Source: Octopus vulgaris (lineage: Eukaryota). From it: a stretch of 64,000 bases of DNA. The notes under the pieces are model-generated. The model was not told the DNA's origin, ran no database searches, and was given only the letters and a program-made list of their open reading frames with translations. Where the stretch lies: NCBI GenBank assembly GCA_951406725.2, contig OX597820.1, positions 58,838,001 to 58,902,000 on the forward strand. Reading direction: 5' to 3'. The first letter of the stretch is position 1, and the number at the start of each line of letters is the position of its first letter. A program made the translations under genes and the position numbers. This document shows, one piece after another, positions 41,932-61,705 of the stretch.

Positions 41932-42300
41932 TTAATACTTTTTGAAACGAAGGTGAAGTTTCTTAAGATACTTTAGTATCAATCTGCTTATTTTCCACCG
42001 ATAACAACTTTTGCTGATATCTTTCAATAATTTATCTCGTTGTTCACCGTAAGAGGAGAAGTACTTTTTGGCTTCAGGGGATATTTCCACAGGAATGATA
42101 TCGGCAAATTTCCCACTCGACCAGTCGTTATTCACTTCATTTAACAACTGTATCCTCTTCTCAACGGTCGGAACGACATCTGGAGGCGTCAGACAAGTGA
42201 AGTTGCTGGGTAACGTAACATTCTTAAACACGATAACACCTGGGATTCTTCTATAGATCCAGCCTGCATTTCGTGGTTCAATAACAAAGCCATCACGTTT
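41932..42300 (-). CDS. MMACHC: MMACHC-like paralogue C, exon 4 ([25 protein letters not shown]...RFKKY*)
   Basis: tttcag|AAA acceptor; PPDVVPT..KRI.LL..N.DW and EAKKYFS....QR match human. Confidence 0.88.
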   Translation of the reverse strand, partial: KRDGFVIEPRNAGWIYRRIPGVIVFKNVTLPSNFTCLTPPDVVPTVEKRIQLLNEVNNDWSSGKFADIIPVEISPEAKKYFSSYGEQRDKLLKDISKSCYRWKISRLILKYLKKLHLRFKKY

Positions 42301-60300: not shown

Positions 60301-61705
60301 TAATAATAATAATAATAACAAAATAATAATAACAATAATAATAATAATAATAATAATAATAATAATACCAATAATAATAACAATAATAATAATAATAACA
60401 AAATAATAATAACAATAATAATAATAATAATAATAACAATAATAATAACAATAATAATAACAATAATAATAACAATAATAATAACAATAATAATAATAAC
60501 AATAATAATAACAATAATAATAATAATAATAACAATAATAATAATAATAATAATAATAATAATAACAATAATAATAACAATAATAATAATAACAATAATA
60601 ACAATAACAATAATAATAACAATAATAATAATAATAACAATAATAATAATAATAATAATAACAATAATAATAACAATAAATATAATAACAATAATAATAA
60701 CAATAATAATAATAACAATAATAATAATAACAATAATAATAATAACAATAATAATAATAATAATAATAATAATAATAAATGCCCTGATGCAGTACCAGGC
60801 AGTGGCTCTCATGGCTTCTGATCTTAACTAATTGGAAGTGTTATCATGTACATTGTTTTGTCTTGGTATAAAAGATGGGCTACAGCAAATATTCTGCTCA
60901 ATACCACAGATTTGCTTGTCAGTTGTTTGACCTTAACCAGTTGAGCATGTCCCTTAGTGGCTGACGATATGTGCATCTCTGATCACGAGCAGAAGTAGTG
61001 GGGGAGCATCATAGCCATGTGTTGAGAGGGATTCTTTGGGGTTTGAATAATTCACCTCTGGAAACATGGGTGGTTCTTTCAACATCCTTAAACAACCCTT
61101 ATTCAGGGACCTTTTGAGCGGGAAGGGCTACTCAACCTGAAGAAAATTCAAACTGGGCCCCACCTGCAAGGTCATGTGCTGTTTATCTTGATATGAGATC
61201 ACCATGTCGCGCACATATGGTTGTGATGCATGTGCCTGGTGTACCCTTATCAGACGGGTAGTCATGATGGGTATATTGGGCTTCGTATATTTTACCCCAG
61301 TGTCACTTTGATGGCATGCACTGCTCTCTCATTCAATAATAATAATAATAATAATGATAATGATAATAATAATAATAATGATAATGATAATAATAATAAT
61401 AATAATAATAATACTAATAATAATAATTATAATAATAATAATAATAATAATAATAATAATAATAATAATAATAATAATAATAATAATAATAATAATAATA
61501 ATAATAATAAGAAGAAGAAGAAGAAGAAGAAGAAGAAGAAGAAGAAGAAGAAGAAGAAGAAGAAGAAGAAGAAGAATGAATGAATAATAATGAATGAATG
61601 AATGAAAACGAAGACATTACTAACTGCAAATGGATGGGCTTCATATCCATACTGGTTTAGGGCGGCGTTGAAAGCAGCCAAAATGGTTACCACTGCACCC
61701 AACAT
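41932..61705 (-). CDS. MMACHC: MMACHC-like paralogue C, complete 4-exon CDS: 61705-61625, 49364-49158, 45252-45103, 42300-41932 (268 aa)
   Basis: All introns are GT-AG, phase 0 and at the human MMACHC positions. The joined frame is open (27+69+50+122 aa). Confidence 0.85.
43060..43888 (-). mobile_element. Penelope-like element (RT C-terminus + GIY-YIG endonuclease)
   Basis: [39 protein letters not shown]. Confidence 0.9.
45103..45252 (-). CDS. MMACHC: MMACHC-like paralogue C, exon 3 ([50 protein letters not shown])
   Basis: atatag|AAA acceptor, AAG|gtcagt donor, 150 nt. Exon and flanking intron align with 23138-23287. Confidence 0.92.
45402..45968 (-). mobile_element. mariner internal-deletion derivative
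   Basis: TA-flanked TIRs TTGGGTTGTCCGGAAAGTTCGTGCTGATTT / [41 protein letters not shown]-terminus joined to a [18 protein letters not shown]-terminus. Confidence 0.9.
46150..46460 (-). mobile_element. RTE-like LINE 3' fragment with (GAT)n tail
   Basis: LLLWKP...RGR..SY.D....DTG....L..AM.DR..WR. Confidence 0.7.
47630..48203 (+). mobile_element. Tc1-like internal-deletion derivative
   Basis: TIR TGCAGGAAGTAAATAGACA / TGTCTATTTACTTCCTGCA; HTH remnants [17 protein letters not shown] and [11 protein letters not shown]. Confidence 0.8.
48795..48973. mobile_element. hAT MITE
   Basis: CAGTGGTTCTCAA / TCGAAATCACTG ends; 8-bp flanks ATTTAGAC / ATTTAGAG. Confidence 0.7.
49158..49364 (-). CDS. MMACHC: MMACHC-like paralogue C, exon 2 ([45 protein letters not shown]...QKFWD)
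   Basis: aaccag|GTG acceptor, GAT|gtaagt donor, 207 nt, phase 0/0. Confidence 0.92.
49826..50057 (+). mobile_element. SINE family 2, single unit
   Basis: GGTGGCGAGCTGGCAGAAACGTTAGC head through AGCCCCTTGTGGGCAATAAAGAAA tail. Confidence 0.85.
52795..53135 (-). mobile_element. Tx1/L1-like ORF2 end plus 3' UTR
   Basis: [23 protein letters not shown], then a UTR ending AATAAAGAAA and (ATT)n. Confidence 0.55.
53578..54109 (+). mobile_element. About 530-bp non-coding interspersed repeat within (AAT)n, copy 1
   Basis: Near-identical to 60804-61333; (AAT)n on both sides. Confidence 0.85.
54300..54767 (-). mobile_element. SINE family 1, full length
   Basis: Reverse complement of the 23497 element. 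Confidence 0.85.
55220..55720 (-). mobile_element. SINE family 2 with about three tandem body units
   Basis: TACTTAATTTATCGACC.CGAAAGGAT..AGGCAAAGTCGACCTCG occurs three times; single head at about 55718. Confidence 0.8.
56035..60099 (+). mobile_element. Near full-length Dong/R4-like RLE LINE inserted in (AAT)n; ORF broken by about 4 frameshifts
   Basis: [59 protein letters not shown]...K..KY; long (AAT/AAC)n on both sides. Confidence 0.93.
60780..61333 (+). mobile_element. About 550-bp non-coding interspersed repeat within (AAT)n, copy 2
   Basis: Near-identical to 53578-54109, with about 25 extra 5' bases. Confidence 0.85.
61625..61705 (-). CDS. MMACHC: MMACHC-like paralogue C, coding exon 1 ([27 protein letters not shown])
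   Basis: gaaaATG with an upstream in-frame stop; 81 nt as in human exon 1; L..YGYE.HPF versus human L..FGFE.YPF; GCA|gttagt donor. Confidence 0.82.

Follow-up and report, generated by a model that had tools for sequence, protein, structure and literature searches.

A cluster of MMACHC/CblC paralogues in Octopus vulgaris with signs of routing to the secretory pathway

The stretch of DNA analysed here (the window) comprises 64,000 nucleotides of contig OX597820.1 of the Octopus vulgaris assembly GCA_951406725.2 (G000:C7:58838001-58902000). It carries gene C, a paralogue of MMACHC/CblC that runs on the minus strand from 61705 to 41932 in four phase-0 exons with AG/GT ends and an open frame of 268 amino acids. 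Exons 2, 3 and 4 score 43.5, 33.9 and 53.9 bits against the Pfam MMACHC family (PF16690), each above the cut-off of 27, and exon 4 matches human MMACHC structures; exon 1 alone (27 amino acids) has no Pfam match. Its human length, pointed out in the initial annotation, is correct: it measures 81 nucleotides, as in the human gene, whose exon 1 donor is listed as c.81+1 (PMC9464900). From their sequences, gene C and its cephalopod relatives represent a real and apparently undescribed form of the known MMACHC family, for which routing to the secretory pathway is likely.

The MMACHC cluster spans about 0.4 Mb of this contig, and genome searches place two ordinary CblC genes on another contig (C2). 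Intact members are D, B0, A0, the C of the window and a second copy of C 164 kb away. Spliced genes of the contig are identical, letter for letter, to the public O. vulgaris proteins P0002 and P0003. The housekeeping job is covered by the ordinary octopus CblC genes, since these have retained the charge of helix 1, Asp104 and the three glutathione arginines. The comparisons below concern seven cluster proteins (four from this genome, one from O. bimaculoides and two from Argonauta). They are set against 83 other family members for the charge of helix 1; one of these is a Sepia paralogue, and its removal leaves 82 for residue counts.

The first 19 residues of gene C contain no Asp, Glu, Lys or Arg. 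Helix 1 of the seven cluster proteins carries 0-1 charged residues, against a median of 5 (range 1-9) among those comparison proteins (74 of 83) that have the full helix; the replacement of a charged helix by an uncharged one, noticed in the initial annotation, is a property of the whole cluster. The uncharged N-terminal runs extend over 17-22 residues, and the best 9-residue hydropathy of the C/D helix (2.69) is on a par with that of the leaders of the relatives described below. A model of sister D, which is 87% identical to C, has a mean predicted local distance difference test (pLDDT) score of 96.9 with an alignment of 86 sequences. It superimposes on human MMACHC (3SC0) with Z 31.4 and a root-mean-square deviation of 1.8 over 232 aligned residues. 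In this model residues 2-19 are confidently helical and superimpose on human helix 1, starting with residue 2. Within the cluster, positions 5, 8, 9, 12 and 16, on the core-packing face, stay large and hydrophobic (mean 2.7-4.2), and charged residues at the outer positions have become small and neutral. The basic amphipathic tail of C and D (Table 1) is helical in the D model. Members with short tails (B and P0005) also have an uncharged helix 1.

The cysteines follow a distinct pattern, and the motifs named in the initial annotation are all present. Cys70 is found in all seven cluster proteins, in five of five leader-bearing relatives (see below) and in 3/82 others. The C-terminal Cys, 11 residues after Arg230, is likewise found in 7/7 and 5/5, with 2/82 others. 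The two occur together in 12/12 cluster and leader-bearing proteins and in none of the 82 ordinary CblC proteins. Cys30, which replaces human Trp30 and had been singled out in B and C, is present in six of the seven cluster proteins and absent from A and from the 82 others. Cys180/182 shows a similar distribution (6/7, with 1/82 others). These two residues occur together in six of the seven, and both are absent in A and in the 5/5 leader-bearing relatives. From this co-occurrence we infer the pairings Cys30-Cys182 and Cys70-Cys245. A Cys70-Cys245 staple is plausible because residues 72-80 and 227-230 lie around the same MMACHC pocket (PMC10740964).

All N-glycosylation sequons listed in the initial annotation can be found in the window. 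The list misses an N-K-T across the B exon 3/4 junction and an N-x-T inside helix 1 of intact A and B, and the NTS of A is absent from intact A. Taken alone, the three sequons of gene C are within chance (1.42 expected from shuffles, P=0.16). The cluster proteins carry 3, 3, 3, 3, 5, 4 and 1 sequons against a mean of 0.57 in the 82 others, with the proviso that the rows are related and not independent. The sequon at position 145 is shared by 4/7 cluster and 4/5 leader-bearing proteins and is found in 0/82 others. An N-x-S/T sequon at 13-15, in helix 1, occurs in 5/7 members; O. bimaculoides B no longer has it. The sequons at 14 and 177-179 are new and specific to the cluster, and between D and C the sequon at 44 was lost and another gained at 42. 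The five leader-bearing proteins have 9, 3, 3, 3 and 3 sequons; the ancestral Cys86 has disappeared from them.

The glutathione-binding arginines of human MMACHC are Arg161, Arg206 and Arg230 (PMC9464900, PMC10740964). Two of them, Arg161 and Arg206, are lost in all seven cluster proteins. Gene C has Pro, Ala and Arg at the three positions, which are Arg in 80, 79 and 77 of the 82 others. Loss of Arg161 extends to 5/5 of the leader group and 2/82 others, and Asp104 has the same distribution of losses (7/7, 5/5 and 2/82). Because Arg161 and Arg206 are gone, glutathione-driven dealkylation is very unlikely in the cluster proteins, in keeping with the loss of glutathione dependence first proposed. 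Loss of Arg161 is uncoupled from secretion, as it is also seen in P0213, a relative that has neither a leader nor the Cys pair. Replacement of Arg161 by Asp was observed in P0213/P0035, P0103 (Crassostrea virginica), P0179 and P0189, and glutathione chemistry may have been lost more than once in molluscs. The residues Gln118, Thr119, His122, Tyr129, Gln131, Gly147, His151 and Trp200 of the cobalamin pocket have been retained by D and B and by most relatives. Gln131 and Gly147 are described as cobalamin contacts (PMC11910325, PMC9464900). D and B are under purifying selection relative to each other (dN/dS, the ratio of non-synonymous to synonymous rates, of 0.25).

A search seeded with the sequon-rich match P0067 led to five full-length unnamed proteins (P0208, P0211, P0214, P0215 and P0216) that carry a hydrophobic leader before a charged helix 1. 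The leaders have a best 9-residue hydropathy of 2.0-2.8 and, by eye, a small-residue site at their end. P0211 falls in one 90% cluster with the Sepia pharaonis protein CAE1172260.1, which is annotated from a downstream Met, so that its model leaves the leader out. The other four group with P0211 at 100/99 support, which suggests that they too are of decapodiform origin. In the model of P0215, residues 1-4 and 7-14 have a pLDDT below 50, and the part that superimposes on human MMACHC starts at residues 19-26. P0208 scores exons 3 and 4 of cluster genes B and D above those of ordinary CblC, and a search of this genome with P0208 returned no other locus. The leader group resembles the cluster in Cys70 and the C-terminal Cys, the loss of Asp104 and Arg161, the sequon at 145 and a Y-G-x-x-R motif before the last helix. 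It differs in having a separate leader and a charged helix 1, in keeping Arg206 and in lacking Cys30/182 and Cys86. The ESM Atlas returned ordinary MMACHC clusters only. From the shared characters we favour one origin of the cluster and the leader group, convergence on secretion being the alternative. In either scenario the shared characters are associated with a signal peptide. The secretory re-routing proposed in the initial annotation thus gains support from relatives with the same Cys pair, losses and N-x-T site, and the part of it that appears less likely is a short cleaved signal.

Indeed, of the features of a classical signal peptide, gene C has the hydrophobic stretch, no basic residue and, by eye, no good (-3,-1) site, and in the fold this segment makes up helix 1. 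A hydrophobic N-terminal helix inside the mature fold, as expected of an uncleaved internal signal, is present in the model of sister D. An uncleaved signal is more likely than a cleaved one because the uncharged N-terminus overlays helix 1 and its buried face is kept. We consider entry of this octopod gene product into the secretory pathway by helix 1 more probable than not, and this route is the weakest link of the explanation. The origin of exon 1 as a leader fused in by deletion was rejected, its register matching helix 1 of ordinary octopus CblC.

Because an in-frame stop lies 7 codons upstream of the gene C ATG and contigs from sequencing runs continue collinearly there, no upstream leader exon is seen in the octopod gene. 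Contigs of eight runs were compared with exon 1; no run that carries matching sequence is recorded as RNA, and their RNA status is a guess. In four of them (X5-X8) exon 1 is joined to the start of exon 2, with an exon-2 overhang in X8 of 28 letters, below the 31-letter bar. The X5 contig is collinear upstream to 61722, with no AG left before the in-frame stop, and that of X8 reaches past 61925. No joint from exon 1 to any upstream exon was seen in the contigs of the eight runs. The spliced contigs carry the D-type letter at 61688 and document sister gene D or an allele. The X4 contig matches C upstream and stops short of the splice; three of the eight runs (X1, X3 and X11) gave no exon 1 contigs, which proves nothing. 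Sampled words of C exon 4 are present at 0.91 in X1 and 0.85 in X2, and the D locus shares only 118/351 words of this exon, which hints that gene C itself is transcribed. An out-of-frame upstream open reading frame (ORF) of 48 codons (61787-61641, minus strand) overlaps the start of gene C and is shortened by a stop in sister D. It could dampen translation of gene C. That this ORF is a remnant of the lost leader is unsupported (shuffle P 0.09-0.53 against the five leaders).

Gene C itself has changed rapidly. It differs from D by 37.5 non-synonymous and 4.5 synonymous differences, a dN/dS of 2.2 that is not significantly above 1 (Fisher P=0.08). With O. bimaculoides as the outgroup, 25 replacements fall on the C branch, 5 on that of D and 3 are ambiguous. 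Seventeen of the 25 lie within codons 129-161 and fall in a single 35-codon window. None of 20,000 random placements reached 17 (maximum 12). A His-rich stretch replaces Tyr129, Gln131 and neighbouring residues, and all Cys and the frame are kept. Among the pocket residues, His122 and Gly147 are retained and Gln131, Tyr129, His151 and Asp104 are lost. The clustering of the changes points to selection or a localised event, not to uniform decay, and we read it as a re-tuning of the ligand pocket, so far as sequence can tell.

Taken together, these observations make it quite probable that the family belongs to the secretory pathway. Our best explanation, which we hold to be somewhat better than an even chance, is a secreted or luminal, disulfide-bonded glycoprotein offshoot of MMACHC/CblC, predicted to bind B12-type molecules and not to process them. 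Corrinoid binding as the job of the family is given the same modest preference, less so for gene C than for sister D. The model assumes that a duplicate in the cephalopod ancestor gained a cleavable signal peptide and the disulfide between Cys70 and the C-terminal Cys. Octopods would then have lost the leader; helix 1, its outer-face charge gone, would act as an uncleaved internal signal for the endoplasmic reticulum (ER) and afterwards fold back into the domain. A second disulfide, Cys30-Cys182, would have been added in octopods. With glutathione chemistry gone, the retained corrin pocket would serve to capture or carry cobalamin in places other than the cytosol, and the basic C-terminal helix would attach the protein to membranes or mucus. 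Gene C would recently have re-tuned its pocket, probably to a different cobamide, a tetrapyrrole or a metal. The simplest job for such proteins would be the capture or carriage of B12-type molecules in a secretion, a body fluid or a luminal compartment.

Several findings speak against this reading. A clade of the cluster and the leader group is absent from the best tree and is not rejected (p 0.434 in the approximately unbiased (AU) test), and a clade of the cluster with ordinary octopod CblC is not rejected either (AU p 0.15). These tests were run on a careful 22-row tree that omits the second C copy and the second ordinary copy; a separate quick tree was also made. In several members helix 1 makes only a weak signal (best 9-residue hydropathy 1.6-2.7) and has no basic n-region, and its hydropathy is marginal in A, B and one Argonauta copy. 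One ordinary CblC protein reaches a helix 1 hydropathy of 2.29, and for the outer face the values of the cluster (-0.54 to 0.46) overlap the highest among the 55 ordinary proteins that were scored (maximum 0.5). The proteomic check suggested in the initial annotation did not come out in its favour: ink and skin-mucus proteome supplements gave only ordinary CblC peptides and six cluster motifs were not found, the files being incomplete and the content of their databases uncertain. As to the ligand, Asp104 is lost in all members, gene C may have no B12 binding, given its loss of Gln131, Tyr129 and His151, and intact A has lost Gln118, Thr119, Tyr129, Gln131, Gly147 and Trp200. The Cys-aliphatic end of intact A could mean cytosolic prenylation.

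Secretion of the octopod proteins by way of a short signal peptide, with cleavage of helix 1 after about residue 10-16, would fit the length of the uncharged runs and a C/D hydropathy equal to that of the relatives' leaders. It is made improbable by the conserved core-packing residues of a helix that overlays human helix 1 in the model, by the sequon at 13-15 in five of the seven members, and by the lack of a conserved small-residue (-3,-1) site visible by eye. The octopod copies may instead have returned to the cytosol or to the cytosolic face of a membrane. In that case the uncharged helix 1 would mediate contacts within an oligomer or with a membrane, and the Cys and sequons would be relics. 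The absence of the upstream leader from the octopod genes, the weak signal in A, B and the Argonauta copies, the basic amphipathic tail of C/D, the CaaX-like end of A and the silence of the ink and mucus tables can all be understood in this way. Against it speak a new Cys pair, 30/182, that is found only in the octopod cluster (6/7 versus 0/5 leader-bearing proteins) and always as both Cys or neither, the new cluster-specific sequons at 14 and 177-179 and the exchange of sequon 44 for 42 between D and C. The short-tailed B and P0005, moreover, retain the uncharged helix 1, and we regard a return to the cytosol as unlikely.

Two further alternatives bear on the ligand and on gene C. By analogy with S-crystallins, the family may be secreted and have abandoned B12, its members being bulk or structural proteins or binders of another pigment or metal. 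The loss of Asp104 throughout, of six pocket residues in A, and the new His cluster of C agree with such a change of job. Retention of most pocket residues by D, B and the leader group over a long divergence argues the other way, and the idea is possible yet doubtful. For gene C alone, decay of a duplicate under relaxed selection might be envisaged from the 25 replacements against 5 on D, the loss of near-invariant residues, a dN/dS not significantly above 1, the broken A and B copies next to it and the out-of-frame upstream ATG that overlaps its start. But both copies of C have an open frame, the two indels comprise whole codons, none of the five Cys has been lost and the changes concentrate in one segment as no random placement did, so decay seems rather unlikely. 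The secreted or luminal B12 binder remains our preferred explanation.

Ordinary MMACHC/CblC (PF16690; PDB 3SC0, 5UOS and 7WUZ) shares with the cluster its fold (Z 31 and deviation below 2 for sister D), four exons, an 81-nucleotide exon 1 and, in D and B, most pocket residues. The cluster differs in the loss of Arg161, Arg206 and Asp104, the uncharged helix 1, two derived Cys pairs, more numerous sequons and its multiple copies, and C and D have in addition the basic C-terminal tail. Transcobalamin, haptocorrin and intrinsic factor are secreted, disulfide-bonded B12 binders of an unrelated fold and provide only a functional comparison. Transcobalamin binds B12 base-on and MMACHC base-off, and the known CblC works in the cytosol (PMC9464900). 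No exon of the window matches the transcobalamin family (PF01122). Genome searches with PF01122 and PF14478 gave 0 matches; the PF01122 control was also silent and exon-split genes can be missed, so absence from the octopus is not claimed. Transcobalamin-2 genes have been annotated in the pearl oyster (PMC7998362). A secreted cobamide-capturing family would be a second invention of extracellular B12 carriage by an unrelated fold, with the octopod export signal passed from the leader to helix 1 and gene C selected for a His-lined pocket of new specificity, as expected under host-microbe competition for B12; we put this forward only tentatively. Ovalbumin and SerpinB2 are secreted via an uncleaved internal signal, in that a helix of the cytosolic fold itself brings it into the ER; the S-crystallins of cephalopods arose by recruitment of glutathione S-transferase, with loss of glutathione chemistry. 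Both are precedents only, from families unrelated to MMACHC. A literature search for the serpin precedent found no paper, nor did one for a secreted or non-catalytic cephalopod branch of MMACHC, most subscription journals being outside its coverage. The passages of PMC5999225 concerned with the squid MMACHC homologue give a primer pair only, and the terms 'secret', 'paralog' and 'disulfide' are absent from the searched passages of a 2022 review (PMC9464900).

Table 1. Positions in the window of gene C, its residues of interest and neighbouring features
Feature	Position	Strand	Remarks
Gene C exon 1	61625..61705	-	27 codons; uncharged helix 1 (likely internal signal) and strand 1
Gene C exon 2	49158..49364	-	69 codons; Cys30, sequon N42, Cys70, ancestral Cys86
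Gene C exon 3	45103..45252	-	50 codons; Asp104 to Ser, His122 kept, His-rich stretch
Gene C exon 4	41932..42300	-	122 codons and stop; Arg161 to Pro, Arg206 to Ala, Arg230 kept, sequons N173/N179, Cys182, Cys245
Cys30 (human Trp30)	49356..49358	-	putative partner Cys182, from co-occurrence
Cys182	42193..42195	-	putative partner Cys30
Cys70	49236..49238	-	putative partner Cys245, from co-occurrence
Cys245	42004..42006	-	putative partner Cys70
Pocket segment, first half	45103..45156	-	codons 129-146; five new His; His at the position of human Gln131
Pocket segment, second half	42250..42300	-	codons 147-163; His151 (invariant in 82/82 others) to Glu; 2-codon insertion
Basic amphipathic C-terminal tail of gene C	41935..42003	-	23 amino acids, net +9
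Paralogue A exon 2 (broken copy)	1369..1563	+
DNA transposon, left inversion boundary	1692..4597	+	terminal inverted repeats, 605-aa ORF, Spin-doc zinc finger match
Paralogue B exon 4	4696..5037	+	moved to opposite strand by inversion
Paralogue A exon 4	10412..10786	-	inverted relative to its exon 2
Paralogue A exon 3	14022..14165	-	inverted relative to its exon 2
Second, shorter transposon copy, right inversion boundary	17181..19673	-	98.2% identical, inverted
Paralogue B exon 3	23138..23287	-
Paralogue B exon 2 (broken copy)	27316..27522	-

The A and B copies of the window, taken for paralogue genes in the initial annotation, are both broken; intact A and B lie elsewhere on the contig. Relative to A0 and B0, an inversion affects the segment at about 4600-17200, which is flanked by two transposon copies with 98% identity, and it has exchanged parts of A and B. 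Exon 1 of B is missing from the window, and that of A, which lies just to the left of it, has lost its 5' half. The inversion is either a real rearrangement or an assembly artefact. The junction of A exon 2, transposon and B exon 4 recurs about 215 kb away (G000:C7:59052782-59057964) with a premature stop. Intact A (L047/L048, G000:C7:59033695-59045140) is a very long branch that has lost most pocket residues and has a hydrophobic tail with a CaaX-like end; it may have a different location and job. The twin of gene C 164 kb away (window 56771-64000 versus G000:C7:58731001-58741000) is 99.3% identical over 10 kb and differs at two amino acids. It represents either a duplication of recent date or the tandem assembly of two haplotypes. 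Ordinary CblC likewise exists in two copies, 48 kb apart (G000:C2:24431006-24491900), with 4 non-synonymous and 0 synonymous differences and a 2-residue indel, and neither copy has the arginine-rich 108-113 loop that is usually present. A frameshifted retrotransposon of the class without long terminal repeats (56257-59802, plus strand; RVT_1 and zf-RVT matches) lies in intron 1 of gene C between long (AAT)n arrays. A similar fragment at 14523-15368 is likewise flanked by (AAT)n runs. The intronic element resembles the microsatellite-targeting R4/Dong elements.

Public gene models hide the pattern described here: every copy bears the name of the enzyme, the start of the Sepia model lies downstream of its leader, and the model of gene C (P0001) skips exon 2. 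Other public models (among P0006, P0038, P0194 and P0069) fuse cluster exons to unrelated sequence or, in the Sepia case, omit the leader. Loss of MMACHC causes cblC disease. The protein is described as thermolabile (PMC11910325), and the cephalopod branch, if correctly interpreted, would supply disulfide-stabilised versions of it. The ordinary enzyme, the leader-bearing form and the leaderless form with an uncharged helix 1 would constitute a natural series in which a signal sequence moves into a folded domain. If the interpretation is true, the cluster is a candidate for the means by which vitamin B12 is captured, carried or withheld outside the cells of cephalopods.

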